DNA of 64,000 nucleotides from an uncultured Geminicoccaceae bacterium (GTDB taxonomy: Bacteria; Pseudomonadota; Alphaproteobacteria; Geminicoccales; Geminicoccaceae): positions 11,979-75,978 of the forward strand of contig CAZDFD010000003.1 of the NCBI GenBank assembly GCA_964504655.1, given 5' to 3'. The translations under genes were made by a program, and so were the position numbers. Below are positions 7,490 to 62,265 of the stretch, in pieces (position 1 is the stretch's first letter; every line of letters begins with the position of its first letter). The notes below the pieces were generated by a model. It searched no databases. It saw nothing but the letters and a program-made list of their open reading frames with translations, and was not told where the DNA came from.

Positions 7490-8566
7490 ATGTTGCGACG
7501 CGACGTGATCGCCACCGCCGGGGCCGCGAGCGTGGCCGGGCTCGCCGCTCCGGCGATCGCCCAGGGCAGGATCCGCTGGAGCATGGCCATGCCCTGGCCG
7601 CGCGGGACGCCCGGCGTGGCCGTCAACGCCGAGCGGTTCGCCCGCCGGGTCGAGGCGATGTCGGCCGGCCGGATCGAGATCAAGCTGTTCGGCGCCGGCG
7701 AGCTCGTTCCACCCTTCCAGGTGTTCGACGCGGTGCACGCCGGGACCGCCCAGCTCGGTCACGGCACGCCCTATTACTGGGCCTCGAAGTCGCCCTCCCT
7801 GCACTGGTTCACCGGCGTGCCGTTCGGCCTGACGGCCACCGAGCTCGCCGCCTGGCTGTACCACGGCGAGGGTGGCAAGCTCTGGAAGGAGGCCTACGCG
7901 CCCTTCAACGTGGTGGCCTTCTACGCCGGCTCATCCGGGGTCCAGGCGGGCGGCTGGTTCCGCAAGGAGATCAACGGGCTGGCCGACCTGCAGGGTCTCA
8001 AGATCCGGATCGCCGGGCTGGGTGCCGACGTGATGCGGCGGCTGGGTGCCACCCCGGTGACCACCCCGCCCGGGGAGATCCTGCCCAACCTGATGAGCGG
8101 GGCGATCGACGCGGCCGAGTGGATCGGACCCTGGAACGACCGTGCCTTCGGCCTGCAGAAGGTCGCCAGGTACTACTACGTGCCGGCTTTCCACGAGCCC
8201 GGCCCCGGCCTCGAGCTCCTGGTCAACAAGCAGGAATGGGAGAAGCTGACCCCCGACCTGCAGGCGATGCTCGAGACCGCGGCGTCGGCGACCGCCAACG
8301 AGACGCTGGCCGATTTCGTCTACCACAACATCGAGAGCTTCGTGCCGCTTCTGGGCGAGGGTGTCGAGCTGCGCGCCTTCCCCGAGGAGGTGGTGCGTGC
8401 GATGGGCGAGCAGTCGATGGCCGTGTTCGAGGAGATCGCCGCCAAGGACGCGCTCGCCCGCCGCGTGCACGACTCGTTCCTCGCGTTCCTCAAGCGTTCC
8501 GTGGTCTATGCCGACCGCTTCGACGCCCGGCTGCTCGCCATGCGACGGCTGGTCGTGCGGCTCTGA
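7490..8566 (+). CDS. TRAP transporter substrate-binding protein (DctP family), twin-arginine-type signal
   Basis: GAGGAGGA RBS upstream. The signal MLRRDVIATAGAASVAGLAAPAIAQG is followed by a typical DctP-family body (IKLFGAGELVP, GWFRKEINGLADLQGLKIRI, AAEWIGPWND). No DctQ/M genes lie nearby. Confidence 0.85.
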   Translation: MLRRDVIATAGAASVAGLAAPAIAQGRIRWSMAMPWPRGTPGVAVNAERFARRVEAMSAGRIEIKLFGAGELVPPFQVFDAVHAGTAQLGHGTPYYWASKSPSLHWFTGVPFGLTATELAAWLYHGEGGKLWKEAYAPFNVVAFYAGSSGVQAGGWFRKEINGLADLQGLKIRIAGLGADVMRRLGATPVTTPPGEILPNLMSGAIDAAEWIGPWNDRAFGLQKVARYYYVPAFHEPGPGLELLVNKQEWEKLTPDLQAMLETAASATANETLADFVYHNIESFVPLLGEGVELRAFPEEVVRAMGEQSMAVFEEIAAKDALARRVHDSFLAFLKRSVVYADRFDARLLAMRRLVVRL

Positions 8567-8716
8567 GGCAGGGCCGGCGGCGGGCGGCGAGCCGGCCGCC
8601 GACCGGGAAGCGGGGCCCGAGGGTCCGGCCGGCCATCGGCTCCGTCGCCCGGCCGCGGGCCCGAGCCGCCGGGCCTCGCGGCGGGCTCCTGGGAACGTCC
8701 TTCGTCGGAACGGGGC

Positions 8717-9439
8717 ATGCTGACCGACCTCAGAGTGGCCTGCGCGGTCCTGACCCGCCTGCCGGTGGGGCTCACGCGGCCGCCGGGCCGGGCCGAGCTC
8801 CTCCAGTCCGTGCACTGGTTCCCGATCGCCGGCGTGGCGGTCGGCGCCGCAGCGGCCCTGGCCTTCCTCCTGGCCGGGCTCATCGGCCTTCCCGGCCTGC
8901 CGGCACTTCTCTTAGCGCTCGCGACCCAGATCCTGGCGACCGGTGCCCTCCACGAGATCGGCCTCGCCGCCACCCTCGACGCCCTCCGACCGACCACGGG
9001 GCGCGACGCCGCGGGCGGGCGCCTCGGCACCCTGGCGCTGGTGCTGGCCGTGCTCGCGCGGGTCGCAGCGCTCACGACCTTCTGGAGTCCGGCGAGCTTC
9101 GCCGCGGCCCTCGTGGCCGCCTCGGCCGCATCGCGCGCCGCGCTGCCGGCGGTGATGCTGGTCCAGCCCGCGGCGCCGAACGGCTCGGGCGGCCGGCCGG
9201 ACCCGACCCGCGTCGCGCTCGGCCTCGGCCTCGCCTGCGCCGTCGCGGTGGCACTGCTGCCGCCCCGGGTGGCGGCCCAGGCGCTGCTCTGGGCCGGGCT
9301 CGCCGCCGCCACGGTGGCGGTCGCGCTCGGCCGGCGGCTCGGCGGCTGCTCCGGCGACGGCCTCGGTGCGGTCCAGCAAGCGGGCGAAATCGCCTTTCTG
9401 CTCTCGCTCTCGGCCGACGGCTGGCCGCGCTCGCTCTGA
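8717..9439 (+). CDS. cobS: adenosylcobinamide-GDP ribazoletransferase (cobalamin synthase)
   Basis: 240-aa polytopic membrane protein. N-terminal LRVACAVLTRLPV, an HE.GLA..LDAL block and GGCSGDGLGAV are CobS hallmarks. Confidence 0.85.
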   Translation: MLTDLRVACAVLTRLPVGLTRPPGRAELLQSVHWFPIAGVAVGAAAALAFLLAGLIGLPGLPALLLALATQILATGALHEIGLAATLDALRPTTGRDAAGGRLGTLALVLAVLARVAALTTFWSPASFAAALVAASAASRAALPAVMLVQPAAPNGSGGRPDPTRVALGLGLACAVAVALLPPRVAAQALLWAGLAAATVAVALGRRLGGCSGDGLGAVQQAGEIAFLLSLSADGWPRSL

Positions 9440-9460
9440 CCGCGCCGAGCCGCGGCGCGG
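9440..9460. terminator. GC hairpin between convergent cobS and the protease-nuclease gene
   Basis: CCGCGCCG-agccg-CGGCGCGG is a perfect 8-bp stem with a 5-nt loop in the 25-nt gap between two stop codons. There is no U-tract. Confidence 0.3.
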
Positions 9461-9464
9461 CCGC

Positions 9465-11651
9465 TCAGAGCAGGATGTCGGCCAGTCGGGCGATCGGCCG
9501 GTCGCGGGCCGCGGCGGTCGCCTCGAGCGTCCGCCCGCCGGCGAGCGGGTCCCAGGCGACGAGCCGTCCGAGATCGAGGCCGGTGGCGGCGGCGATCGCC
9601 GCGAGCGGACGCTGGCGCAGCCGGAACTCGCCGGCCTCGATCGCCTCCTCGCGGCGCCGGGCGAGCAGATCGCTCTGCTCGAGGACGAAGCCGAGGGCGC
9701 CCGGACGGCCGTCCTCGCGCGCGAACACCACGATCTTGAAAAATGCCCGCGGCACCAGGAGATCGCCCAGCGGCAGGTCGTTGTCCGAGAAGATCGGGCC
9801 GTTCAGGACCGAGACCCGGATGCGCTGCAGCGAGCCCTGATGGGCGATATGGTTCTCGAGATCGCCCCAGAGCTTGAGATCGCGGCTCGTGTAGACCGTC
9901 GAGCGGTTGAAGTCCTCGTGCTGCGGGGCGCAGTTGGTCCAGTGGAAGGTGTCGTCGTTGGCGGCGAGCGCCTCGGCCTGGTCGCGCCCCCAGGCGGCAT
10001 CCGCCCGCCGGGTCAGATGACCGCGGTCGAGCGGGTTGTCCCGGTAATAGACCTCTCCGGCCTGAACCTCGCGGCTCAGGCGCGGGTCGTACCGCCAGCG
10101 CCCGGTGCCCGCCTCGCGGCCGAGCACCACCGGCGCGTCGAAGTCGACATTGACCGCCGACAGGCAGGCGAGCCGGCGGCGGGCGTTCACGAGCACGCTG
10201 AAATGATGGTAGCGCAGTTCGGTCTCGCCCGGACGGCCAATCAGCTCGGCGAGCGGGCCGTGGCGGTCGTCGACCAGCCCCGGCAGCGCCAGCTCGAAGC
10301 CGAGGAAGCCGCGATCGAAGCCGGCCCGGTCGGCGTAGTCGGCCGGCCGCAGCCGCTCCTCGGCGTCGGCGCCACCCGGATCCGCCAAGCGCAGCTCTAC
10401 CCGGCCGGGTACCGGCGACGACAAGGTCAGCTCGAGCGTGAGCGGCACCTGCACGCTCACCCGGCCGGCCGCCTGGGGAGTGCCGCCCGCCGGCGCTGCC
10501 TCCTCCGCCGGGGCCGGCCCGAGACGGGGTTCGGGCGCGGGCGCGCCGGCCCGACCGGCGTCCAGGACCGCCTCGAGCAGCCGTGCCGCCTCGCCCGAGA
10601 GGCCCCCGAGCGCCGCCTCGAGGGCCCCGACCAGGGCCGAGACCCGCACGCCCTCGTTGGCCACCCAGGCGATCGCCGCCGGCGGGTCGCGGCCCTCGAC
10701 CCAGACGCTGCCGTCGCGCGCCAGCCAGCGCCCCGCGGCGTCGCGGGCAGGGACGGCGCTGTGGTGCAGCGCCACGACCTCCCAGCCGTCGTTGAACACC
10801 GGCGCGCCCGAGGACCCCGGCTCGGTGTCGGCCTCGTAGTGCAGGAACGGGGCGAACCCGGGGTCCTCGCCGGCCGGCCCGGTCAGGAGGTCGACCAGGC
10901 GGTTGCCGCGCAGCACGACCTCCTTCTCGCGACCCTGCGGATGCTGCACCAGATTGACCGGCTCGCCGATCGTGACCTTGCCGATCCGCCCGTCGAGCGG
11001 CGACCAGCCATAGCCCGCGACGGCGGCCCCTTCGCGCGACCGCCCGGCCACCGCGACCAGCGCCAGGTCGAGCGCACGGTCGTGCAGGAACAGCCGCTCC
11101 GGTTCGAGCGCGAAGGTCTGCGGGACCAGGGGCGGGCCGAACCCGTTCGCCTCGAGGTCGAGCTGGAGCGCGGCCACGGCCGCCTCGGCCGGGCTGCCGA
11201 GGACGTGCTCGTTGGTGAGCAGCACGCCCGGGGCGACCAGGAAGCCGGTGCCACGGGGCACGAGGCGCGGGCCGTGGCGGAGCACGATCCGGCCGACCGT
11301 GCGGGCGGCCGCGACCCCGCGCTCGAGGAACTCGACGCTGAGGAAATCCTTGAGGCCGATCATCGCCTCGCGGGCCGACGCGTCGTCGAGCCGCGGCGGG
11401 ACCGACGGCAGGACGGCGGCGGCACGGCCACCGTCGGTGCCGATTGCGGCCGCGTCCAATCGGGCGGCGGCCGCCCGCGCCGCCCGCCCGAGTCGGTCGA
11501 GGCGAGCTTCCAACCGCGCGGGGGTGTCGGCGCGGGTGAGCCGCCCGGCGCGCAGCGCCCGCAGCCGGGCCGCGCGCGGCCGGGCGCGGCGCTCGAACCG
11601 GCCGGCCGCCGCCTCGGCGAGTTCACGCAGGCGCGGATCGAGCTCGGGCAT
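9465..11651 (-). CDS. fusion protein: trypsin-like serine protease plus DNA/RNA non-specific (Serratia/NucA-type) endonuclease
   Basis: ORF 9465..11681 trimmed to MPELDPR (GGGGGGAG RBS). Protease triad: LLTNEHV, ALDLALV, TEPGSSGAPVF. Nuclease: DRGHLTRR and TNCAPQHEDFN (beta-beta-alpha-Me motifs). An Ala/Pro-rich linker joins the domains. No signal peptide. Confidence 0.85.
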   Translation of the reverse strand: MPELDPRLRELAEAAAGRFERRARPRAARLRALRAGRLTRADTPARLEARLDRLGRAARAAAARLDAAAIGTDGGRAAAVLPSVPPRLDDASAREAMIGLKDFLSVEFLERGVAAARTVGRIVLRHGPRLVPRGTGFLVAPGVLLTNEHVLGSPAEAAVAALQLDLEANGFGPPLVPQTFALEPERLFLHDRALDLALVAVAGRSREGAAVAGYGWSPLDGRIGKVTIGEPVNLVQHPQGREKEVVLRGNRLVDLLTGPAGEDPGFAPFLHYEADTEPGSSGAPVFNDGWEVVALHHSAVPARDAAGRWLARDGSVWVEGRDPPAAIAWVANEGVRVSALVGALEAALGGLSGEAARLLEAVLDAGRAGAPAPEPRLGPAPAEEAAPAGGTPQAAGRVSVQVPLTLELTLSSPVPGRVELRLADPGGADAEERLRPADYADRAGFDRGFLGFELALPGLVDDRHGPLAELIGRPGETELRYHHFSVLVNARRRLACLSAVNVDFDAPVVLGREAGTGRWRYDPRLSREVQAGEVYYRDNPLDRGHLTRRADAAWGRDQAEALAANDDTFHWTNCAPQHEDFNRSTVYTSRDLKLWGDLENHIAHQGSLQRIRVSVLNGPIFSDNDLPLGDLLVPRAFFKIVVFAREDGRPGALGFVLEQSDLLARRREEAIEAGEFRLRQRPLAAIAAATGLDLGRLVAWDPLAGGRTLEATAAARDRPIARLADILL

Positions 11652-11752
11652 CGGCTCCCCCCGACCGTCGGCCGGCCACACGGCGGACGACCTCTGCTAT
11701 AACCCTGCTCGCGAGGCAATCGCGTGCCAGTTGCCGGAGCCGGGAGCCGCCC

Positions 11753-12859
11753 ATGCGCCGGATCACCTTCGACGAGCTCGAGGCCAAGCTCGCCGACCCC
11801 GATCTGCCGGATGCGCGGATCCGTCCCTACCTGCGCGGCGTAGCCGAGGCGTCGGCGCCGTTCGACCCGATCGTGCAGCCCGATCCCGAGCGGGTCGAGC
11901 TCAGGCCGCTCGATGCGGTGCGGATCGAGCGGCTCGACTTCCTCGGCTGGGCCAACAGCTGGTCGCGCTGGCGTCGCCAGCAGCGCTGCCTGCGCCGGCT
12001 CGAGCGCGGCGAGAGCCTGCCGGTGCTCGTCTCCGAAGGCGACAGCTGGTTCCAGTTCCCGTTGCTGCTCGACGACACGATCGACCAGCTGGCCGAGCGC
12101 CACCTGATCTGGAGCCTCGATGCGGCCGGCGACACCCTCGCCCACATGACCGGCGCCGACGCCGAATATGCGGGCGCGCTGCTCGACCCGCGCCTCGCCG
12201 GCCGGGCCCGCGGCCTGTTGCTGTCGGCCGGCGGCAACGACGTGATCGGCACCGAGACCGACGCCCAGGGCCGCGAGGTCTCGGTGCTCGCCTCGATCCT
12301 GCGCCCGCGCACGCCCGGGCGCGACCCGGCCTGGCACGTCGACACCGACGAGCTCGCCCGCCGCCTGGCCGCGATCGAGACGGGCTACCGGCAGGTGCTC
12401 GAGACCGTGGCGGCGATCCGGCCGGGCACCTTCGTGGTCTGCCACGGCTACGCCCATGCCGTGCCGGCGTTCGAGGGCGACCCGCGCCGGCCCGGCTGGA
12501 CCCGGCACGGCGGCTGGCTGCGCCGTCCGCTCGAGAGCCGCGGCTTCGTCGATCCGGGCGAGCAGCGGGCCATCGTCGCCGCGCTGATCGACCGGCTGCA
12601 CGCGCTGCTCGCCCGGCTCTGCGGCGGCAACCGGCCCGGGGGGGCGTATCCCTACGCCTATCTGGTCGACTGCCGGCCGCTCCTGGGCGAGCACGACTGG
12701 GCCGACGAGATCCACCCCTGCGACGCCCCCGGCCGCGGCTTCGCCACGGTCGCGCGGGCGTTCGAACGGGTCATCGAGGAGGCGCTCGTCGCGCATCCGC
12801 TGCCGGCGCGGGCCGCGGCGCTGCCCGCCGGGCTCCGGCTCAGAAGGCGAACTCGCTGA
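11753..12859 (+). CDS. SGNH/GDSL-family hydrolase with an N-terminal extension of about 90 aa
   Basis: GGGAG RBS. Block I is VLVSEGDSWFQFP (Ser codon 12044-12046), block III is LSAGGNDV, and block V is WADEIHP. The N-terminal 90 aa match no family I recognise. Confidence 0.8.
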   Translation: MRRITFDELEAKLADPDLPDARIRPYLRGVAEASAPFDPIVQPDPERVELRPLDAVRIERLDFLGWANSWSRWRRQQRCLRRLERGESLPVLVSEGDSWFQFPLLLDDTIDQLAERHLIWSLDAAGDTLAHMTGADAEYAGALLDPRLAGRARGLLLSAGGNDVIGTETDAQGREVSVLASILRPRTPGRDPAWHVDTDELARRLAAIETGYRQVLETVAAIRPGTFVVCHGYAHAVPAFEGDPRRPGWTRHGGWLRRPLESRGFVDPGEQRAIVAALIDRLHALLARLCGGNRPGGAYPYAYLVDCRPLLGEHDWADEIHPCDAPGRGFATVARAFERVIEEALVAHPLPARAAALPAGLRLRRRTR

Positions 12860-14207
12860 ACAGGGGGTCGACCGAGCCGCCCCATTCCTCGTGGAAGCGG
12901 CGCAGCTTGAGCTCGGCCGGGGTGCGCCCGGTGGCACAGGTCTCCTCGAGCGGCGCCAGATAGCGCGTCTCGTCCTGGCCGTCCCAGTTGAGCCGGGCCC
13001 GCCGGGCGAGGCCGTCACGGGCGAGGCCCACGACGGTGCGGGCCAGATCGAGCACCGTGCCGCCGCGGAACGGGGTCGCGAGCCCCTGGCGCGGCACCTC
13101 CCGGCGCAGTTCCTCGAGCTCGGCCGCGGTCCAGCCGGCCACCAGATCGGCCGCCGCCGCCAGCGACCGCTCGTCGTAGAGCAGCCCGACCCAGAGCGCA
13201 GGCAGCGCGCAGATCGTGCGGAACCGCCCGCCGTCGGCGCCGCGCATCTCGAGGTAGCGCTTGAGCCGGACCTCGGGGAACGCGGTCGTGACGTGGTCGG
13301 CCCAGTCCGAGAGGGTCGGCCGCTCGCCGGGCAGCGCCGGCAGCCGGCCTTCGAGGAAGTCGCGGAACGACTGGCCCGAGGCGTCGACGTAGCGGCCCTG
13401 CCGGTAGACGAAGTACATCGGCACGTCGAGGAGCCACTCGGCGTAACGCTCGAAGCCGAAGCCCGGCTCGTGCACGAAGCCGAGCATGCCCGAGCGGTCG
13501 GGATCGGTGTCGAGCCAGACCCGCGAGCGCAGCGACAGGAACCCCGACGGCCGGCCCTCGAGGAACGGCGAGTTGGCGAACAGCGCCGTCGCGACCGGCT
13601 GCAGCGCCAGGCTGGTGCGCAGCTTGGTGACCATGTCGGCCTCGGACGCGAAGTCGAGGTTGACCTGAACCGTGCAGGTCCGCAGCATCATGTCGAGCCC
13701 GAGGCCACCGCGCCGCGGCATGTAGGCCCGCATGATCCGGTAGCGGCCCTTGGGCATCCAGGGGATGTCCTCGCGTCGCCACTTGGGATTGAAGCCCATG
13801 CCGAGCATCGCGACGCCGAGGGGCTCCGCGATCTTCTTGAGCTCGTCCAGATGCGTGTGGACCTCGCAGCAGGTCTGGTGCAGCGTCTCGAGCGGTGCTC
13901 CGGACAGCTCGAGCTGGCCGCCCGGCTCGAGGGTCACCGAGCAGCCGCCCTTGGTGAGCGCGATCGGCCGGCCCTCCTCGAGGACCGGCTCCCAGCCGAA
14001 GCTCTCGGCAAGCCCCTCGAGCAGCGCCCGGATCCCGGCTCGGCCCTCGTAGGGCAGCGGCCGCAGGTCGGCCGTCGTGAAGCAGAACTTCTCGTGCTCG
14101 GTGCCGATCCGGAAGCTCTGCCGTGGCTTGCAGCCCCCGGCGAACCACTCGACGAGCTGACGTCGGTCGGTGATCGGCTCGCCTGTGCCGGAGGGCGGCG
14201 CGGACAT
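12840..14207 (-). CDS. gshA: glutamate-cysteine ligase, plant/alphaproteobacterial type (GCS2 family)
   Basis: ORF 12840..14792 trimmed to MSAPPSG (GGAAGGAG RBS, cat at 14205-14207). The 455-aa protein has FRIGTEHEKF, LEPGGQLELSGAP, RTCTVQVNLDF and FPEVRLKRYLEMRGAD. Confidence 0.92.
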   Translation of the reverse strand: MSAPPSGTGEPITDRRQLVEWFAGGCKPRQSFRIGTEHEKFCFTTADLRPLPYEGRAGIRALLEGLAESFGWEPVLEEGRPIALTKGGCSVTLEPGGQLELSGAPLETLHQTCCEVHTHLDELKKIAEPLGVAMLGMGFNPKWRREDIPWMPKGRYRIMRAYMPRRGGLGLDMMLRTCTVQVNLDFASEADMVTKLRTSLALQPVATALFANSPFLEGRPSGFLSLRSRVWLDTDPDRSGMLGFVHEPGFGFERYAEWLLDVPMYFVYRQGRYVDASGQSFRDFLEGRLPALPGERPTLSDWADHVTTAFPEVRLKRYLEMRGADGGRFRTICALPALWVGLLYDERSLAAAADLVAGWTAAELEELRREVPRQGLATPFRGGTVLDLARTVVGLARDGLARRARLNWDGQDETRYLAPLEETCATGRTPAELKLRRFHEEWGGSVDPLFSEFAF

Positions 14208-14251
14208 GGGTGCTCCTTCCCCGAGTGACGCGGCCTCATAGCCCCGCCGCG

Positions 14252-14283
14252 CCGGCCGCCGCAACCGGGCCCCCGGCGGCCGG
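14252..14283 (-). terminator. perfect 9-bp GC hairpin between the parA-like gene and gshA
   Basis: CCGGCCGCC-(14 nt)-GGCGGCCGG in the 98-nt gap. It could be a terminator, attenuator or processing site. There is no U-tract. Confidence 0.25.
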
Positions 14284-14305
14284 TCCGCCCCGCCCCGGCA
14301 GCGGC

Positions 14306-14935
14306 TCAAGCCGAGAGGAGCTCCTGGAGCAGCGCCTCGACCTCGCGAGCCGCCGCACCCCTGGGCTCCGCCTCGACCACGCCCAGGCCCCTGGCGAAGC
14401 TCGCCACATAGGCCTGGCGGTTGCCGAGCTCGGCCACGGCCGCGGGCCAGCCCTCGCGGGCCACCGTGGCGCGCGCCTCCTCGACCGCCCGGCCGCGCGG
14501 CGGCACGCGGGTCCAGACCAGGCGTGCCGTGCGGCCCTCCCTGCGCGCGAGCTCGAAGGTCGCGCGGCTGGCCCAGAGGTCGGCCGGGCTCGGCTGGCAG
14601 GGCACGAGGACCAGGTCGGCGCGGCGGATCGCGCCCTTGGCCTCGCTCTCGGCGTGCGGCGGGGTGTCGACCAGCACGAGATCGACCTCGCGCCCGAGCC
14701 GGTCGAGCTCGACCCCGAGCCGCCAGCCGCCGACCATGGCGAAGCGCAATTCGGGCGCCGAGCGGGCCTCGTGCTCGCGGATCCGCATCCACCCCGTCAG
14801 GCTCGCCTGCGGGTCGATGTCGACCACCGCCACCCGCCGCCCGGCGGCGGCGAGCGCGGTGGCGAGCTGCACCACGAGCGTGGTCTTGCCGGCCCCGCCC
14901 TTCTGCTGCGCGACGGTCAGGATACGTGCCGCCAC
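14306..14935 (-). CDS. ParA/MinD-family P-loop ATPase (orphan ParA-like)
   Basis: GTG start with a GAGGAG RBS that contains the upstream gene's stop codon. Deviant Walker A QQKGGAGKTT, plus VVDIDPQ and LVLVDTPP. Confidence 0.85.
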   Translation of the reverse strand: MAARILTVAQQKGGAGKTTLVVQLATALAAAGRRVAVVDIDPQASLTGWMRIREHEARSAPELRFAMVGGWRLGVELDRLGREVDLVLVDTPPHAESEAKGAIRRADLVLVPCQPSPADLWASRATFELARREGRTARLVWTRVPPRGRAVEEARATVAREGWPAAVAELGNRQAYVASFARGLGVVEAEPRGAAAREVEALLQELLSA

Positions 14936-23779: not shown

Positions 23780-25207
23780 TCAGCGGGTGAGCAGGAGCCC
23801 ACCCGTCCAGAGGGTCGCCAGGGCCAGCGCCAGCGCCGCCGTCGGCAGCGCCCGGCGGAGCAGAAGAGGGTCGGCCGCGGCGCTGCCGGCCAGGACCGCG
23901 GCCAGCCCGAGGCGCGGCGGCGAGAGCAGCGTGAAGGTGCTCGCGACCGCGTTCAGCACGCCGCCGAGCGGCTCGAGCGCGATCCCGGCCGCGGGCGCGA
24001 GCGCCGCCACGATGGGCATCAGGAGGCTGTTCGAGCCGGCGTTCGAGGCGGTCAGGAAGCCGGCCAGGGCCGCCATCCCCGGCACCGCCAGGATCGCCGC
24101 CGGGCCGGCCATGGCGAGGAGCCCCTGGGCGGCGGCGGCGGCCAGTCCGGCGGCGCCGTAGACCGTCGCCATCGCCACGAACAGCAGGGTCACGAGGCAG
24201 GGCGTCCAGGCACGCCGGCCGGCCGCCCGCAGGGCCGGACCCAGCGCGGCGGCGCCGCGCCGCGCCACGAGGAAGCCGAGCGCCACCACGAGCAGCCAGC
24301 TCGCCGGGCTGCGCAGGAGCGGCAGCGGCGGCAGGTCGGCGGCCGGGCGCAGCACCAGGAGCCGTTGCGCCGGCTCGGCCACGGCCGGCACCAGCCGCAC
24401 CGCCAGGAGCGCGGTCACGAGGCAGCCATAGTCGAGGGTCCCGCGCAGGGTGGCCGCGAGCCGGGCGGGTCCGGGGCGCACGTCCCGCAGCCAGCGCAGC
24501 GCCAGGAGGAGCCCGCTCGCCACGAGGCCCACGAGCTCGAGGTCGAGCCGCGGGCTGAGCCGGACCAGGAGCAGGCCGAGCGCCGCCAGCCAGAGCGCGT
24601 CCTCGAGCGTCGCCGCGGCCGGCCGGGCGAGCCCGACGCGACGCGCCAGAGCCTCGAAGGCCACGAGGTGGCCGGCCAAGAGGAGGGCCGTGACCTCGGC
24701 CGAGGCGAGGCCGAGGGCGCGCGGCTCGAGCCCGGCCAGATCGGCGCCGAGCCGGGTGCCGACCGCGAGCGCCCCCCACGGCACCAGCACCTGGCTGAAC
24801 AGGCCGAGGAGCGCCGCCGCGGGCGCGGCCAGCCCGCGCGCCCGAAGCGCCGCGAAGGCCACGAGCCAGCCGACCCCGAAGCCCGTCGCGCACTCGGCGA
24901 ACGGGCCCAGCAGGAAGGCCGCGGCGAACGGGCTGGGCGCGGTCTCGCCGCCGGCCGCCGGCTCGTCGCCGCCGCGGGCGCCGTGGAACAGGAGCCCCGC
25001 CGCCACCACCAGGATCACCTGGAGCGCCAGCCAGCCGCCGCGCAGGAGCTGCAGCGCCGCCTCGGGCGGCGCCAGTCGGCCGGTCGCGAGCGCCGGCCCG
25101 AGGGTCGCGGCGAGCCCGAGTCCGCCGGCGAGCACCGCCCCGCCCCGGGCGGCGAGCACGCCGACCACGACGAGGATCGGGAACGTGGCCGCGATCGCGC
25201 CCGTCAA
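23780..25207 (-). CDS. polytopic permease, L-lactate permease (LctP) family-like
   Basis: 475-aa hydrophobic protein. GFLTASNAGSNSLLMP resembles the LctP FLTGSDTSSN motif. TTG start 7 nt after the ppk2 stop; the start is uncertain. Confidence 0.6.
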   Translation of the reverse strand: MTGAIAATFPILVVVGVLAARGGAVLAGGLGLAATLGPALATGRLAPPEAALQLLRGGWLALQVILVVAAGLLFHGARGGDEPAAGGETAPSPFAAAFLLGPFAECATGFGVGWLVAFAALRARGLAAPAAALLGLFSQVLVPWGALAVGTRLGADLAGLEPRALGLASAEVTALLLAGHLVAFEALARRVGLARPAAATLEDALWLAALGLLLVRLSPRLDLELVGLVASGLLLALRWLRDVRPGPARLAATLRGTLDYGCLVTALLAVRLVPAVAEPAQRLLVLRPAADLPPLPLLRSPASWLLVVALGFLVARRGAAALGPALRAAGRRAWTPCLVTLLFVAMATVYGAAGLAAAAAQGLLAMAGPAAILAVPGMAALAGFLTASNAGSNSLLMPIVAALAPAAGIALEPLGGVLNAVASTFTLLSPPRLGLAAVLAGSAAADPLLLRRALPTAALALALATLWTGGLLLTR

Positions 25208-44770: not shown

Positions 44771-47482
44771 GTGGACGAGCGGGACGGGCGGTGCGCCGAG
44801 GAGCGGGCAGCGAGCTGGCACGCCGCCGAGCTAGAGGAATGCCTGCGCGCGCTCGGCAGCCGGCCGGAGGGGCTGAGCCCGGCGGAGGCCGAGGAGCGGC
44901 TCGCCCGCTTCGGCTTCAACCGGCTGCCCGAGCCGCCCCGCAAGGGGCCCTTGGTGCGGTTCCTCCTCCAGTTCCACAACCTCCTGATCTACGTGCTCCT
45001 GGTGGCGGCCGTCCTCTCGCTGCTCTTCGAGCATCCGGTCGACGCCGCGGTCATTCTGGGCGTCGTTCTGATCAACGCGGTCGTCGGGTTCGTCCAGGAG
45101 GGCAAAGCCGAGGCCGCGCTCGAGGCGATCCGCGGCATGGTCGACCCCAAGGCCTCGGTGCTGCGCGAGGGCCGGCGGCTCACCGTTCCGGCCGAGCGGG
45201 TGGTGCCGGGCGACGTCGTGCTCTTGGAAGCGGGCGATCGGGTACCGGCCGATCTGCGCTTGTTGCGCGCCAGGGGCCTCAGGATCGACGAGGCGATCCT
45301 GACCGGCGAGTCGGTCCCGGTCGACAAGAGCACGAACCCCGCGCCGCGGGAGGCGGCGCTCGGCGATCGACCCTGCATGGCGTTCTCCGGCACCTTCGTC
45401 GTCGCCGGGCAGGGCACGGGCGTGGTCGTTGCGACCGGTGCCGAGACCGAGCTCGGCAAGATCGGCAAGCTTCTGGGCCAGGTCGAGCGGCTCGAAACCC
45501 CGCTGTTGCGGCAGATGGCGGGCTTCGCCCGCACCCTCACGGTCGTGATCCTCGCGGTCTCCGCGGCCGCCTTTCCCTTCGCCTGGCTGGTCCAGGCCTA
45601 TCCGCTCGACCTTTCCTTCATGACGGTCGTCGGGCTCGCCGTCGCCGCCATCCCCGAGGGCCTGCCGGCGGTCATGACGATCACGCTCGCCATCGGCGTG
45701 CAGCGCATGGCCCGCCGCAACGCCATCATCCGCCGCCTGCCGGCGGTCGAGACCTTGGGCTCGGTCTCGGTCATCTGCTCGGACAAGACCGGCACGCTCA
45801 CCCGCAACGAGATGACCGTGCAGACGGTCCGCACCGCGTCGGCGCTCGCCCGCGTCTCCGGCAGCGGCTACGCCGCCGAGGGCGCGTTCTCGTCCGACGG
45901 TGCGCGGATCGACCCGCTCGCCGACCCGGTGCTGGCCGAGCTGATCGAGGGCGGCCTGCTCTGCAACGACGCCGAGGTCCGGCACGGCGAGGCTGGCTGG
46001 CTCGTCGACGGCGATCCGATGGAAGGCGCGCTCGTCACGCTCGCGATGAAGGCCGGTCTCGACCCGGCGACCGTGCGCAGGGACCTGGTGCGGCTCGACG
46101 AGATCCCCTTCGACAGCCGTCACCGGTTCATGGCGACACTGCACCGGAGCCCGGACGGCCACCGCTTCGTGATCGTCAAGGGCGCGCCCGAACGACTGCT
46201 CGAGATGTGCCGGACCGAGCGGACGACCGAAGGCGAGCGGCCCGTGGATGCCGCCTTCTGGCGGGCGGCGGCCGAGGAGCTGGCCGGCCGCGGTCAGCGG
46301 GTGCTGGCGCTCGCCCGCGCGCCGGCACCACCCGGCGACCGGCCGCTCGAGCCCCGGGACGTCGAGGGTGGCTGCGTGCTCGTGGGCCTCGTGGGCCTGA
46401 TCGACCCGCCGCGCGAGGAAGCGGTGGCGGCGGTCGCCGAATGCCACACGGCCGGCATCCGGGTCGTCATGATCACCGGCGACCACGCCACGACCGCCAA
46501 GGAGATCGCCCGCCAGCTCGGCATCGCCCGCGAGCCGTCGGTCGCGACCGGCAACGAGCTCGACGCGCTCGACGCCGAAGGCTTCCGGCGGGCCGCCCGG
46601 GAGGTCCACGTCTTCGCCCGCACCACCCCCGAGCACAAGCTGCGTCTGGTCGAGGCGCTGCAGGCGGATGGGCGGATCGTCGCCATGACCGGCGACGGGG
46701 TCAACGACGCGCCGGCCCTCAAGCGCGCCGACGTCGGTGTGGCGATGGGGATGAAGGGGACCGAGGCCGCCAAGGAGGCGGCCCAGATGGTGCTCGCGGA
46801 CGACAACTTCGCCTCGATCGTGGCGGCCGTGCGTGAGGGCCGCACGGTCTACGACAACCTCATGAAGGTCATCGGCTGGACTCTGCCCACCAACGGCGGC
46901 GAGGCCCTGACGATCCTGGCGGCGCTCGCCCTGGGCCTGGCCCTGCCCGTGACCCCGGTGCAGATCCTCTGGATCAACATGGTGACCGCGGTGGCGCTCG
47001 GCCTCACCCTGGCCTTCGAGCCGACCGAGCCCGGCACCATGCGCCGGCCGCCGCGGCCGGCCGACCGGCCGATCCTCTCGGGCGAGCTCGTCTGGCGCAT
47101 CCTCTTCGTCTCGGTGCTGTTCGTCTGCGGCGCCTTCGGCGTGTTCTACTGGGCCGACCTGCGCGGCGAGACGATCGAGGAGGCGCGGACCCTGGTCGTC
47201 AACACGATCGTCGTCATGGAGATCTTCTATCTCTTCAGCGTCCGCTACGTGCACGGCACCTCGCTCACCGTCGAGGGGCTCGTCGGCACGCCGGCGGTGC
47301 TGATCGGGGTGAGCGTGACCGTGCTCGCCCAGCTCGCCCTCACCTACCTCCCCTGGATGCAGTCCCTGTTCCAGACCCGCCCGGTCGGCCTGCTCGACGG
47401 GATCGTCGTGCTGGCGGTGGGTGTGGCCCTCCTGGTGCTCTGCGAGCTCGAGAAGCGGCTCCGCGCCCGGCTCCAGGGCTAG
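44771..47482 (+). CDS. cation-transporting P-type ATPase (type II, Ca/Mg-like)
   Basis: In-frame GTG 44771 within shadow ORF 43085..47482. Carries TGES, CSDKTGTLT, MITGD and TGDGVNDAPALKRADVGVAMG, with 10 TM segments. Confidence 0.9.
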   Translation: MDERDGRCAEERAASWHAAELEECLRALGSRPEGLSPAEAEERLARFGFNRLPEPPRKGPLVRFLLQFHNLLIYVLLVAAVLSLLFEHPVDAAVILGVVLINAVVGFVQEGKAEAALEAIRGMVDPKASVLREGRRLTVPAERVVPGDVVLLEAGDRVPADLRLLRARGLRIDEAILTGESVPVDKSTNPAPREAALGDRPCMAFSGTFVVAGQGTGVVVATGAETELGKIGKLLGQVERLETPLLRQMAGFARTLTVVILAVSAAAFPFAWLVQAYPLDLSFMTVVGLAVAAIPEGLPAVMTITLAIGVQRMARRNAIIRRLPAVETLGSVSVICSDKTGTLTRNEMTVQTVRTASALARVSGSGYAAEGAFSSDGARIDPLADPVLAELIEGGLLCNDAEVRHGEAGWLVDGDPMEGALVTLAMKAGLDPATVRRDLVRLDEIPFDSRHRFMATLHRSPDGHRFVIVKGAPERLLEMCRTERTTEGERPVDAAFWRAAAEELAGRGQRVLALARAPAPPGDRPLEPRDVEGGCVLVGLVGLIDPPREEAVAAVAECHTAGIRVVMITGDHATTAKEIARQLGIAREPSVATGNELDALDAEGFRRAAREVHVFARTTPEHKLRLVEALQADGRIVAMTGDGVNDAPALKRADVGVAMGMKGTEAAKEAAQMVLADDNFASIVAAVREGRTVYDNLMKVIGWTLPTNGGEALTILAALALGLALPVTPVQILWINMVTAVALGLTLAFEPTEPGTMRRPPRPADRPILSGELVWRILFVSVLFVCGAFGVFYWADLRGETIEEARTLVVNTIVVMEIFYLFSVRYVHGTSLTVEGLVGTPAVLIGVSVTVLAQLALTYLPWMQSLFQTRPVGLLDGIVVLAVGVALLVLCELEKRLRARLQG

Positions 47483-48936
47483 GCACCCCGGGGCTCGGCC
47501 TCCACGCCCGGGGTGACGAGCCGCTCCCGGGCGGCGCGCATGCAGCGGGCGACTTCGCCGGCCCGAACGAAGGCCGGGTCGGCCTCGAGCAGGGCCAACA
47601 GCGTGCGCGCCCGATCGGGCGGCAGCGGCGGTCCGCCGCCCGCCTCGAGGCGGGCCGGCGGCGGCGCGGCGCCGCCCGGCGCCGGATCGAAGCCACCCGC
47701 CTCCTCGGCGAGGCCCAGCCGCCCGCCCTCGCGCAGCTCCACGAGCTGGTCGAGCTGCCAGGCGGTGCGCAGCCCCTGCGCGCGCAGCCGCCGGTAGAGA
47801 TCGGGCTTGAGCTGGACCAGGAGGCAGGCCTGGCCGATCCAGTCGATCACCTGCGGCAGGCTGAACGGCGTCCTGAGCGTCAGATGCAGCGGGTTGGCCG
47901 CGACCAGGCCCTGCGCGTCGTGGATCCCGGCCTCGGCCAGCCGCACGCGCGTGTAGGCGTCGATGCCCTCGATCATTTCGAGCTCGAGCTCGTCGGCGCG
48001 CTGCTCGGCGCCGGCGCCGAACAGGCGGCGGGTCCGCCCGGCCAGCCAGCGCAGCGCCACCTCGGGCACGACGCCGGCGGCGAAGGCCACGAGCAGCACC
48101 GCGACCTCGTCCCAGCGCTGGGCGTTGTCGAGATCGCCCGGCACCAGGAGGATCTTGGTGTGGTAGACGAACAGGGCCACGATCGCGGCGCCCAGGAGGC
48201 GGAGCGCGATCGTCTGGTAGGCGTGGCCGGTGACGTCCCTGAGCGCCATCCGCCGCGAGAGGTAGGTGATCGACCAGAGGAGCGCGCCCAGGAATGCGAA
48301 GGCGAGGCAGAGGAGCGCGCCCGCCTGGTGGTCGACAAGGGCGCGCAGCACCTCGGGCGCGAGCGGCTCGCCGCCGAGCACGCCGCCCTGGGCCGCGAGC
48401 GGGCCGCCCAGGAGCAGGCTCGGCCGGCCGGCCAGATCGAGCCGATCGGCCGAGAAGGCGAGGAGGCCCAGCGCCAGGGCGAGCAGGACCGCCAGGAGGA
48501 AGGAGGGCAGCGAGACGTTCTTGAGGAAGGTCGGCTCCTCGATCCCCGTCTCGTAGTCCTCGATCCGGCTCTCCGGCCGCAGCCCCTGGCCGTCGCGGGT
48601 GAGGAACGGCCGCAGCGCCAGCGTGCCGCCCAGACGGTAGGCGAACGCCGCCTTGCGGAGCTCCTCGATGTCGGAGTTGGAGCCCAGCCGGCGGAACCAG
48701 CGCCCGACCACGAGCAGCGAGACCAGGGCGACCGAGAGGAGCGTGACGCCGGCCCAGGGCAGGCTGGTCGGATCGAGGCGGGCGGCCTCGCCGGGCGGAT
48801 GCCGCCACCACCACAGGAGGAACGCCGCGATCGGCCCACCGGCCAGGAGGACCGCCGAGACCACGGCACCGATCTCCATGCGACGGCCGATCTGCTCGCG
48901 CCGATCGGCGGGCCCGCGGAACCGGATGCCCCACAT
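47479..48936 (-). CDS. hypothetical polytopic membrane protein with C-terminal helix-hairpin-helix-like module
   Basis: Realistic composition and about 6 TM segments. The C-terminal MIEGIDAYTRVRLAEAGIHDAQGLV resembles HhH/DUF4332-type motifs. Start is uncertain (48936, 48879 or 48972). Confidence 0.6.
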   Translation of the reverse strand: MWGIRFRGPADRREQIGRRMEIGAVVSAVLLAGGPIAAFLLWWWRHPPGEAARLDPTSLPWAGVTLLSVALVSLLVVGRWFRRLGSNSDIEELRKAAFAYRLGGTLALRPFLTRDGQGLRPESRIEDYETGIEEPTFLKNVSLPSFLLAVLLALALGLLAFSADRLDLAGRPSLLLGGPLAAQGGVLGGEPLAPEVLRALVDHQAGALLCLAFAFLGALLWSITYLSRRMALRDVTGHAYQTIALRLLGAAIVALFVYHTKILLVPGDLDNAQRWDEVAVLLVAFAAGVVPEVALRWLAGRTRRLFGAGAEQRADELELEMIEGIDAYTRVRLAEAGIHDAQGLVAANPLHLTLRTPFSLPQVIDWIGQACLLVQLKPDLYRRLRAQGLRTAWQLDQLVELREGGRLGLAEEAGGFDPAPGGAAPPPARLEAGGGPPLPPDRARTLLALLEADPAFVRAGEVARCMRAARERLVTPGVEAEPRGA

Positions 48937-49008
48937 CGCCGTCACCCCCGGCCGCTCGCGTCGCGCGAGCACGACAGCAAGGATTCTACGCCTCGGGCGT
49001 TCGTCCGC

Positions 49009-59044: not shown

Positions 59045-59572
59045 GTGCGGTCCGCGACCCGGACCCTGGCCGTGGCGCTGGCGCTGGCGCTGCCGGCGGG
59101 GTGCGCGCGCAAGCCGCCCGAGGCGCTGCCCTGCCCGCGGCCGGCGATCCTCGACGGCGCCCAGACGCTCGAGCGGCGGAGCGGGCCCGGCCCGGCCGAC
59201 TTCGCCTGGCGGGCGACCCTGACCGGGTTCGGCGGCGGCTGCCGCTTCGAGGCCGACGCCACGGTGATCCGGCTCGCCCTGGATCTCGCGGTCGTGGCCG
59301 GCCCGCGCGCCACCCCGGGCGCCGCGATCGAGGTGCCCTGGTTCGTGGCCGTGGCCGATCCCTCGGGCCGGGTGATCGACAAGCAGGGCTTCACCACCCG
59401 GGTCGAGCCCGCGGCCGGGCCGGGGCCGCGCCTGTTGAGCGAGCAGATCGAGCAGCGCATCCAGGGGGTCGGGGCCGCCGAGGCGCCCGCCTGGCGGGTC
59501 TATCTGGGCCTCGAGGTCGAGCCCGAGGAGGGCCTCAGGCGGCTGCGCGAGCGGGCCCGCCAGGCTCCCTAG
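59045..59572 (+). CDS. hypothetical lipoprotein
   Basis: Signal peptide with lipobox (LALALPAGC). Starts 3 nt after the CDGSH stop. Its 3' end overlaps the convergent DUF2339 gene by 38 nt. Confidence 0.6.
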   Translation: MRSATRTLAVALALALPAGCARKPPEALPCPRPAILDGAQTLERRSGPGPADFAWRATLTGFGGGCRFEADATVIRLALDLAVVAGPRATPGAAIEVPWFVAVADPSGRVIDKQGFTTRVEPAAGPGPRLLSEQIEQRIQGVGAAEAPAWRVYLGLEVEPEEGLRRLRERARQAP

Positions 59573-62183: not shown

Positions 62184-62265
62184 GCGCCGCCTCGCTGGCC
62201 CGCGGCCGCCCGCGGCGCTACATAGCCGCCGACCCGGCCACAGGACGACAGGGAACGGCACCCCG

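Follow-up and report, generated by a model that had tools for sequence, protein, structure and literature searches.

A divergently transcribed protease-nuclease and SGNH hydrolase gene pair in a Geminicoccaceae genome, a candidate intracellular death or lysis module

We analyzed a 64,000-nucleotide stretch of DNA (hereafter, the window) from an uncultured Geminicoccaceae bacterium (contig CAZDFD010000003.1, positions 11,979 to 75,978, assembly GCA_964504655.1), in which a gene encoding a trypsin-like protease fused to a NucA-type nuclease adjoins a gene encoding an SGNH/GDSL hydrolase. The two genes form a divergently transcribed two-gene cassette. Judging from its sequences, the family of the fusion protein appears to be large and horizontally mobile, and to be built on a constant module (a helical region plus an S1 protease) that carries interchangeable degradative effectors. 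The reading that we favor, with modest confidence, is that the cassette constitutes a latent intracellular module of the conflict (immunity-like) type, in which proteolysis drives cell death or lysis. The features of the locus, with the evidence for each in parentheses, are listed below in window coordinates.

9465..11651, minus strand: protease-nuclease fusion gene, 728 aa (translation; Pfam Trypsin_2 and Endonuclease_NS; GC content at third codon positions, GC3, of 0.92)
11298..11651, minus strand: N-terminal helical region, aa 1-118, Arg/Ala-rich (AlphaFold2 (AF2) helices, conservation, hydropathy)
10542..11297, minus strand: S1 serine protease of chymotrypsin fold, V8/Spl/FAM111A-like, aa 119-370 (Pfam, triad, Foldseek)
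11205-11207, 11067-11069 and 10809-10811, minus strand: protease triad codons His149, Asp195 and Ser281
10356..10541, minus strand: Ala/Pro-rich flexible linker, aa 371-432 (AF2 confidence, conservation)
9468..10355, minus strand: Endonuclease_NS domain (EndoG/NucA/Serratia-type beta-beta-alpha-Me), aa 433-728 (Pfam, Foldseek, profile alignment)
10017-10019, 9933-9935 and 9906-9908, minus strand: nuclease codons His545 (of DRGH), Asn573 and Asn582
11652..11752, no strand: divergent intergenic region between the fusion and SGNH genes, 101 bp (alignment with locus L081)
11753..12859, plus strand: SGNH/GDSL hydrolase gene, 368 aa (Pfam, conservation, AF2, Foldseek)
12044-12046, 12236-12238, 12704-12706 and 12713-12715, plus strand: SGNH catalytic codons Ser98 (GDSW), Asn162 (GND), Asp318 and His321
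8717-9439, convergent with the fusion gene and 25 bp from it: CobS gene (Pfam)

The open reading frame (ORF) of the fusion runs for 728 codons without interruption. The genome has a GC content of 74-76%, and the codon composition of the fusion frame (GC3 of 0.92, GC content at second codon positions of 0.54) constitutes a coding signature that is restricted to this minus-strand frame. Two database proteins, P0001 and P0002, are 100% and 85% identical to the fusion, respectively. In comparison with the 85%-identical orthologue, the ratio of nonsynonymous to synonymous substitution rates (dN/dS) is 0.25 for the whole fusion, 0.19 for the protease, 0.31 for the nuclease and 0.23 for the adjoining CobS gene; thus, the fusion gene is functional and evolves under purifying selection similar to that on CobS. 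An intact protease-nuclease fusion in a single 728-aa ORF had been described in an earlier reading of the window made from its letters alone (hereafter, the sequence-only reading), and the stop-free translation, Pfam matches, GC3 and dN/dS confirm it. The translation start is likely the ATG at 11651 rather than the GTG at 11681, since the orthologue begins at the same ATG. Two other long ORFs overlap the real genes here, namely the antisense ORF 9366-11702(+) of 778 aa, which overlaps the fusion gene, and ORF 8119-9840(+) of 573 aa; both are antisense or out of frame and have low third-position GC, and, because DNA of ~75% GC breeds long ORFs by chance, we consider them artefacts unworthy of annotation.

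Both catalytic domains of the fusion are complete. Pfam matches Trypsin_2 at aa 134-295 (5e-20) and Endonuclease_NS at aa 477-695 (1.6e-32), and the protease residues H149, D195 and S281 as well as the nuclease residues D542, G544, H545, N573 and N582 are unvarying across alignments of 29 and 96 homologues. The catalytic residues named in the sequence-only reading are thus neither misassigned nor degenerate, and the codon positions that it gave for His149, Asp195, Ser281 and His545 are all correct. The protease has the chymotrypsin fold and the His-Asp-Ser order of peptidase family S1; its matches in a PDB profile search include SplB, V8 and exfoliative toxins, and its top Foldseek match is the protease domain of human FAM111A (8s9k, E 2e-12), with staphylococcal V8/Esp-type proteases also found. 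Its S1 pocket is ambiguous, with Asp at the 189-equivalent and His at the 213-equivalent position. The nuclease has both the DRGH general-base His and the metal-binding Asn of Endonuclease_NS, and the family profile alignment equates H545/N573/N582 with the H-N-N active-site motif of EndoG. A single-sequence phmmer search of this domain against the PDB gave no match, the family profile alone finding its relatives there, and Foldseek matched the domain to EndoG, CPS-6, NucA and Serratia nuclease with target-normalised TM-scores of 0.65-0.74.

The AF2 model of the fusion was built from 96 sequences and has a mean predicted local distance difference test score (pLDDT) of 85.2. The N-terminal region contains confident helices at aa 6-69 and 90-117 (pLDDT about 80-95), so that the helical N-terminus, put earlier at about 110 aa, comprises 118 aa with high AF2 confidence; A15, R18, R46 and E95 are its conserved residues. 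This region has no Pfam match and no effector-associated domain (EAD) even at E<=10, a profile search of 5.8 billion proteins with the region alone returned nothing at E<=0.01, and in a local search its hidden Markov model (HMM) finds solely proteins that bear the protease too. The region is presumably regulatory, a pro-region or an adaptor. In the linker, pLDDT falls below 50 at aa 377-394 and 413-432, and these segments flank an ordered hairpin at aa 396-410 (window 10422-10466); P403 in this beta-hairpin and Glu432 at the linker end are nearly invariant. The linker is a candidate processing region, and it is tempting to speculate that Glu432 marks a V8-type autocleavage site. Most family members end in the motif [DE]-[IV]-x-[LF]-COOH (window 9465-9500, alignment A1), which is preceded by a variable low-confidence segment and past which a few members extend shortly; possible roles of this C-terminus are docking into the protease, contributing a structural strand and serving as an export-like signal.

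The product of the divergent gene gives a weak Pfam match to Lipase_GDSL_2 (0.012); its residues S98, G161-N162-D163, D318 and H321 are unvarying in 56 homologues, and its AF2 model (pLDDT 88.4) is matched by Foldseek to GDSL esterases and platelet-activating factor acetylhydrolase. The protein therefore has the block I Ser, the block III GxND Asn, the block V DxxH and the flavodoxin-like fold that define the SGNH/GDSL hydrolases. Its N-terminus is extended by a conserved stretch of ~90 aa and lacks a signal peptide. In the 101-bp region between the two genes, blocks 11684-11701 and 11709-11727 match the orthologous locus L081 at every position, while the flanking genes have a dS of about 0.35, and the second block contains the inverted repeat CGCGA-N5-TCGCG at 11710-11724. 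These conserved blocks with an inverted repeat suggest common regulation of the fusion and SGNH genes, and we propose region 11652..11752 as a candidate promoter or operator shared by both. A scan of 9300-12000 for sigma-70 promoters and terminators found nothing, as expected for a high-GC alphaproteobacterial host.

Signal peptides are missing from all family members inspected. Among 120 homologues, not one begins (first 45 aa) with a hydrophobic stretch like that of a signal peptide, and just four contain a transmembrane-like segment, which is N-terminal in none of those, bearing out the cytoplasmic appearance that the sequence-only reading had noted for the window protein. Its remark that no inhibitor gene is visible also held in Pfam scans of the neighbors (CobS, SGNH, GCS2 and ParA), which contain no inhibitor-family domain, NuiA itself not having been specifically searched for. 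Thus, neither a signal peptide nor a dedicated inhibitor gene of the NuiA kind, the hallmarks of the secreted Serratia/NucA-type nucleases, was found. Relatives occur in at least 591 species genomes, ranging over Alphaproteobacteria, Acidobacteriota, Planctomycetota, Cyanobacteria, Actinomycetota, Chloroflexota, Bacteroidales, Bacillales and Methanosarcina. Conservation of both termini in organisms with such different cell envelopes argues against an envelope-specific export signal. In all, 131 plasmid records carry the protease-nuclease family, which is absent from all 50,697 phage records. Its presence also varies at the site studied here: in a Geminicoccaceae metagenome-assembled genome (locus L091, 225-3484), the CobS-SGNH-GCS2-ParA order of window 8717-14204 is kept at 69-79% nucleotide identity and the SGNH protein is 66% identical, whereas the 2.3-kb protease-nuclease gene is missing precisely between CobS and SGNH. 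Since this locus is otherwise collinear, the protease-nuclease gene is accessory and variable at its site. The shared gene order also puts the window within the Geminicoccaceae or close to them.

The constant part of the family, represented by aa 1-370 (N-terminal region plus protease), was searched against 1.84 billion cluster representatives and found in 978 clusters at E<=1e-30. We tallied the fused domains in a sample of 71 from the best 150 clusters. All 71 contain Trypsin_2, which is joined to Endonuclease_NS in 25 and to Endonuclease_1 in 11; several carry lipase-type alpha/beta-hydrolases (PGAP1, LCAT, Abhydrolase_6, Lipase_3), and smaller numbers carry DUF1353 (three), PLDc_2 (two) or ATLF (two), with Phosphoesterase, Metallophos or Peptidase_S8 in single cases, while the remainder have no further domain. 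In longer relatives of the window protein, a lipase or Peptidase_C25 domain is inserted between the protease and the nuclease. Conflict systems typically show such swapping of predicted degradative domains around a constant module.

The association of the protease family with SGNH hydrolases emerged only once searches were started from the SGNH side; a tblastn search of 80 distant fusion loci with the SGNH neighbor gave no match. Among 79 metagenomic SGNH loci, 54 were informative, the flanks of the other 25 being too short to judge, and in 39 of the 54 (72%) a homologous protease gene lies directly beside the SGNH gene; in one more, the only protease match is distant, 3.3 kb off. The 25 complete adjacent protease genes all encode Trypsin_2, with Exo_endo_phos (EEP, endonuclease/exonuclease/phosphatase) in five and Endonuclease_NS in one, most being protease-only, and several continuous SGNH-protease-EEP fusion ORFs of about 1,250-1,300 aa were found. 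The relevance that the sequence-only reading had suspected for the SGNH gene was thus borne out by adjacency and occasional fusion. The divergent pair of Trypsin_2-Endonuclease_NS and SGNH genes recurs in two independent loci, one of them in a Bosea genome. In Mesorhizobium onobrychidis and Ensifer aridi, a Trypsin_2-Exo_endo_phos fusion lies directly upstream of the SGNH gene on the same strand. In the metagenomic locus L086, an SGNH-Amidase_3-Peptidase_M15_3 protein is encoded beside an 897-aa trypsin paralogue, 3.4 kb from a protease-NucA gene. On plasmids, SGNH domains sit within proteins annotated as caspase family, S8 peptidase, N-acetylmuramoyl-L-alanine amidase or trypsin-like peptidase.

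Some of these loci have an unusual gene content. The protease-NucA fusion of L086 (9192-17360, 1421-6624) is 46% identical to the window protein and is encoded in an operon with a Peptidase_M10-like gene, a Hemocyanin_M/C (phenoloxidase-type) gene, a small transmembrane protein and an 891-aa caspase (Peptidase_C14); the trypsin paralogue and the SGNH-Amidase_3-Peptidase_M15_3 protein are encoded on the opposite strand, flanked by insertion sequence elements and an integrase. The Trypsin-EEP/SGNH pair of Ensifer aridi (L093/L094) follows two animal-haem-peroxidase genes. The placement of a serine protease beside a phenoloxidase or peroxidase is reminiscent of arthropod prophenoloxidase cascades. 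On the Sinorhizobium meliloti plasmid pSymA (L177, 2002-9902), a 638-aa "caspase family protein" has SGNH as its N-terminal half; the genes ahead of it encode a C1 (papain-like) peptidase, a TIGR02594 protein and a SUMF1/FGE-type protein, and a VapBC pair is nearby. This context looks like a conflict system.

In the window, the SGNH gene is followed by genes for glutamate-cysteine ligase (GCS2) and a ParA-like ATPase, and the upstream side contains the binding protein of a tripartite ATP-independent periplasmic (TRAP) transporter (DctP) and cobalamin genes; synteny in the closest relative (85% identity) is identical. Ten further large window ORFs are housekeeping or unassigned by Pfam, and no gene transfer agent (GTA), phage, LypA-like or LypB-like gene was seen in the scanned parts of the window. 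No trafficking domain and no immunity gene directly downstream, as in polymorphic secreted toxins, accompanies the fusion, the downstream gene being the convergent CobS. Around 80 mostly distant genome loci of the family, all-vs-all clustering revealed no conserved neighbor, the largest ORF cluster covering 8 of the 80, and no downstream ORF, immunity gene or inhibitor gene conserved over these loci was found. The 138 immediate neighbors from 75 loci match 158 Pfam families, none of which is found in more than 5 of the 138. Thus, the fusion is a stand-alone gene over most of its range. An NCBIfam scan assigned it to no family, and its SGNH partner has no match in PADLOC.

Some actinobacterial relatives are found in operons (L045 7681-9912; L059 and L078 about 11950-14640; L014 8205-9920; L046 11832-13127), where their mates include an upstream NACHT NTPase, an overlapping downstream AAA_16-LuxR-type STAND (signal transduction ATPase with numerous domains) protein, an S8 peptidase and Peptidase_M43. 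Because these operon partners differ, one protease-nuclease may have been plugged into several different regulatory partners. On the Bacillus cereus plasmid pC1L1 (L174, 813-14055), a 599-aa family member is clustered with two S8 peptidases, peptidoglycan-binding proteins, a SpoIID/LytB-domain protein, a PGRP-type amidase and another endonuclease. Eight proteins of this cluster were inspected at their N-termini and show no obvious signal peptide, and the cluster looks like a cytoplasmic arsenal of lytic enzymes. Elsewhere in the window, the large ORFs 23780-25207(-) and 47479-48972(-) have coding-type GC3 and no Pfam match at E<=1e-5, the large ORF 44791-46836(+) has no such match and failed the GC3 filter, and 59535-62261(-), where the GC content is about 80%, encodes a DUF2339 membrane protein.

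The closest experimental precedent for the fusion, and the one protein of its architecture to have been studied, is LypC of Caulobacter crescentus. In this species, LypABC is a system resembling caspase recruitment domain (CARD) and nucleotide-binding leucine-rich repeat (NLR) proteins, and it lyses the host for GTA release (Banks, 2026, Nat Microbiol; PMC13236601). LypC consists of a trypsin-like peptidase (S296), a flexible linker and an endonuclease (H471, N505); the S296A substitution abolishes lysis, whereas H471A, N505A and the double mutant do not, and one Caulobacter LypC homologue is wholly devoid of the nuclease domain. Overexpression of lypABC is toxic, and no lytic effector downstream of LypC has been named (Banks, 2026; PMC13236601). 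By analogy with LypC, the protease of the window protein would be essential for its action, overproduction would be toxic, and nuclease catalysis would be dispensable.

We propose that the fusion is made in an auto-inhibited form, perhaps because the N-terminal helices serve as a pro-region or adaptor, and that the protease would be switched on by a trigger, possibly from an NLR-like partner encoded elsewhere. The protease would be the controlling activity, with its own linker, the N-terminal extension of the SGNH protein and host proteins as candidate targets. The NucA domain, acting on DNA and RNA, and the SGNH hydrolase, acting on lipid or cell-envelope esters, would provide the destructive outputs, the latter as a proteolytically controlled effector. 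Latent effectors unlocked by proteases have precedents in metallo-beta-lactamase (MBL) nucleases, alpha/beta hydrolases, Pepco and EACC1 (PMC12799240; bioRxiv 2025.11.14.688446). The latent self-destructive effector envisaged in the sequence-only reading is likewise favored by published predictions and analogues (PMC7159879; PMC12799240), although published work stresses the protease over the nuclease. Its idea that the protease gates the nuclease agrees with the same predictions and analogues; however, lysis by LypC needs the protease and not nuclease catalysis, and gating is probably not the whole story.

Several observations weigh against a proteolysis-driven death or lysis module. Given the dispensability of nuclease catalysis in LypC, the nuclease may not be the killing activity. 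Around the cassette lie housekeeping genes (cobalamin synthesis, GshA, a TRAP transporter), and the adjacent genes include no sensor, CARD-protease or NLR-like gene; in the whole 64-kb window, an HMM of the protease hits no trypsin-like ORF other than the fusion. Across the 75 loci, the immediate neighbors are heterogeneous and mostly housekeeping, with sporadic matches to PADLOC defense models, so that the recurrence in defense islands contemplated in the sequence-only reading is not typical of the family. PADLOC-DB v2.0.0, a check which that reading had suggested, does not recognize the fusion as a system; the only match, to the RT-Protease_XI protease domain, is weak (6.5e-4). The AF2 model predicts the individual domain folds confidently but leaves the relative placement of protease, linker and nuclease uncertain (predicted TM-score, pTM, of 0.60). 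Moreover, 14 of the 54 informative SGNH loci have no protease gene although both flanks span at least 2.5 kb, and the 80 distant fusion loci have no SGNH gene; the SGNH pairing is therefore clade-specific and not obligatory.

A more specific form of this proposal, which we put forward tentatively and hold to be rather doubtful as yet, is that the SGNH family represents a previously unrecognized protease-controlled lytic effector, which would add a member to the class of protease-effector modules, and that it operates in a minimal, self-contained death or lysis module free of a sensor NTPase. The recurrent coupling or fusion of the family to S1, caspase and S8 proteases prompts this reading. 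Among the Caulobacter transposon-sequencing entries listed, there is no SGNH or GDSL gene, and the esterase and lipase genes listed are not enriched for insertions.

An alternative is that the fusion is the downstream arm of an NLR/CARD (LypABC-like) system encoded elsewhere, serving programmed lysis for GTA or prophage release and not defense. LypC, which has the same architecture, is required for GTA-mediated lysis, and the lypABC operon lies likewise outside defense islands (PMC13236601); the host belongs to the Alphaproteobacteria, in which GTAs are common, and a few relatives are operonic with STAND NTPases. We nevertheless consider this explanation improbable for the window gene, because the scanned parts of the window contain no LypA-like, LypB-like, GTA or phage genes, most examined loci have no NTPase beside the gene, the family extends to actinobacteria, cyanobacteria, Bacillus plasmids and archaea, and the residue spacing of LypC, unlike that of every collected homologue, places it in another clade.

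Still less probable, in our estimate, is export of the fusion as a toxin or scavenging enzyme together with an SGNH lipase by a non-classical route, such as a type I secretion system (T1SS)-like, type VI (T6SS) or type VII (T7SS) system, lysis or vesicles. Swappable C-terminal toxin-like domains are also a hallmark of secreted polymorphic toxins, and the conserved C-terminal [DE]-[IV]-x-[LF] resembles the acidic-plus-hydrophobic C-terminal motif of T1SS proteases. A T1SS is encoded 3-6 kb from the Rhizobium gallicum relative, the Bacillus cereus plasmid copies lie amid peptidoglycan-binding proteins and S8 peptidases, and Jablonska (2017), who noted that Endonuclease_NS domains are frequently joined to Trypsin_2, proposed a virulence role. 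We tried the C-terminal D-I-x-L as a T1SS signal and rejected it as the leading interpretation, the motif being equally conserved in Gram-positive homologues. The unrecognized export route offered as a second option in the sequence-only reading is disfavored by the 120 homologues without signal peptides and by the shared termini of Gram-negatives, Gram-positives and archaea, which have no common export machine. The fusion contains no repeats-in-toxin (RTX) repeats and has no conserved downstream immunity gene; no VgrG, PAAR, Rhs, LXG or comparable domain or neighbor was seen in Pfam scans of the protein and among the 25 commonest families of the neighbor tally; the inspected proteins of the Bacillus cluster also have no obvious signal peptides; and LypC acts intracellularly (PMC13236601).

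A housekeeping role in regulated nucleic acid or protein turnover during starvation, development or repair, with SGNH as an unrelated neighbor, is very unlikely, since the conserved core-genome neighborhood in the relative, the purifying selection like that on CobS and the Geminicoccaceae relative that retains SGNH without the fusion are outweighed by a patchy, horizontally shaped distribution with plasmid-borne copies in many lineages, by presence/absence polymorphism at a single site, by effector swapping and fusion to death-type domains, which would be unexpected for a housekeeping enzyme, and by an SGNH-protease link that recurs in distant lineages, gene fusions included.

The interpretation of the cassette as a death or lysis module bears on a wider question, since proteolysis-gated death effectors are an emerging major logic of prokaryotic immunity that parallels eukaryotic caspase/NLR pathways. 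The window locus provides a simpler, two-gene context for a LypC-type protease, and the comparative data associate this module with one specific SGNH hydrolase and with a range of exchangeable nucleases and lipases. If the SGNH family is indeed a protease-controlled lytic effector, LypC-like proteases would have in an SGNH-type enzyme a concrete candidate for their downstream lytic effector. Testable questions that follow concern the protease substrates, the actual killing or lysis agent, and the operation of the module without a STAND/NLR sensor. The database label "DNA/RNA non-specific endonuclease", carried by these proteins in hundreds of genomes, needs correcting; lysis by LypC is independent of the nuclease catalytic residues.

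The two domains of the fusion have well-studied structural counterparts. The catalytic fold and the DRGH / H-N-N site of the nuclease are common to Serratia nuclease, NucA and EndoG. For those enzymes, the host genome is shielded by export (Serratia, NucA), by confinement to mitochondria (EndoG) or by an inhibitor (NuiA for NucA, EndoGI for EndoG). The window protein differs from them in being signal-less and protease-fused, with no inhibitor-type domain in the scanned neighbors. FAM111A, the best structural match of the protease, is a eukaryotic S1 protease that likewise works inside the cell, which it kills when hyperactive; it lacks a fused nuclease and is about 15% identical to the window protease, and the likeness observed is one of structure.

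The protease-nuclease architecture itself is already known from Jablonska (2017), from a predicted conflict system and from LypC. The sequence-only reading had named no defense system of this kind, and a prior record of the architecture was one of the points that it listed as counting against its proposal. Kaur, Burroughs, Iyer and Aravind (Kaur et al., 2020; PMC7159879) predicted "System 3, NucA-peptidase", a mostly alphaproteobacterial conflict system, fused or operonic, in which NucA was proposed to be deployed via a proteolytic cascade. The window gene, with NucA fused to a trypsin-like peptidase, conforms to this description. The accessories of System 3 (peptidase paralogues, EAD1-fused effectors and Death-like STAND proteins) were not seen among the scanned window genes, and the System 3 core also occurs without accessory parts (PMC7159879). 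Accessory parts of this type surround some relatives (L086, L045 and L059); L086, for instance, shares with System 3 the extra trypsin and caspase peptidases and the peptidoglycan-hydrolase effectors. Kaur et al. counted 45 organisms, compared with the at least 591 species genomes with relatives found here, and did not mention SGNH, GDSL or lipase partners.

The likeness to LypC, drawn from its published description, extends to an N-terminal extension with a trypsin-like peptidase, a flexible linker and an Endonuclease_NS-type domain with catalytic His and Asn, as well as to a cytoplasmic, alphaproteobacterial protein encoded outside a defense island; the domain order and disordered linker of the window protein agree with the trypsin-endonuclease fusion of LypABC. 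The structural homologues of LypC and the homologues of the fusion have the genera Roseibium, Pseudarthrobacter, Mesorhizobium, Sphingomonas, Amycolatopsis and Nibricoccus in common, as well as Bacillus cereus. However, LypC is encoded by the third gene of an operon, after the CARD-trypsin-ATPase LypA and the NLR-like ATPase LypB, whereas the window fusion adjoins SGNH instead. No counterpart of LypA is adjacent, there being no second trypsin-like ORF in 64 kb, and no NLR-like STAND ATPase resembling LypB is present in the flanks (CobS, DctP, SGNH, GCS2 and the ParA-like gene), which were scanned together with part of the remaining window ORFs. The Ser-to-His spacing is 175 residues in LypC, which has a much shorter linker, compared with 264 in the window protein and at least 188 in the other collected homologues, and no protein among 262 collected and 65 locus proteins matches the catalytic spacing of LypC. 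Thus, LypC is at best a sister clade to the window protein.

The trypsin-MBL modules of Hachiman, AVAST and canu likewise combine a trypsin-like protease with a latent non-specific effector (Tuck, 2025; PMC12799240). In these modules a separate gene encodes the MBL nuclease, and a sensor is joined to the protease, whereas in the window the beta-beta-alpha-Me nuclease is fused to the protease, no sensor is recognizable, and neither an MBL gene nor a sensor domain is adjacent. The effectors of the published modules recur with trypsin, caspase and S8 proteases, as does the SGNH family, and NucA and SGNH lie outside the four protease-effector modules published (PMC12799240; bioRxiv 2025.11.14.688446). 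In comparison with these systems, the new elements are a window copy that stands without adjacent CARD or NLR partners, what appears to be a clade-specific SGNH partner of the protease family, and the breadth of predicted effector swapping on a single protease module, which spans NucA, Endonuclease I, EEP, phospholipase D (PLD) and lipase domains.

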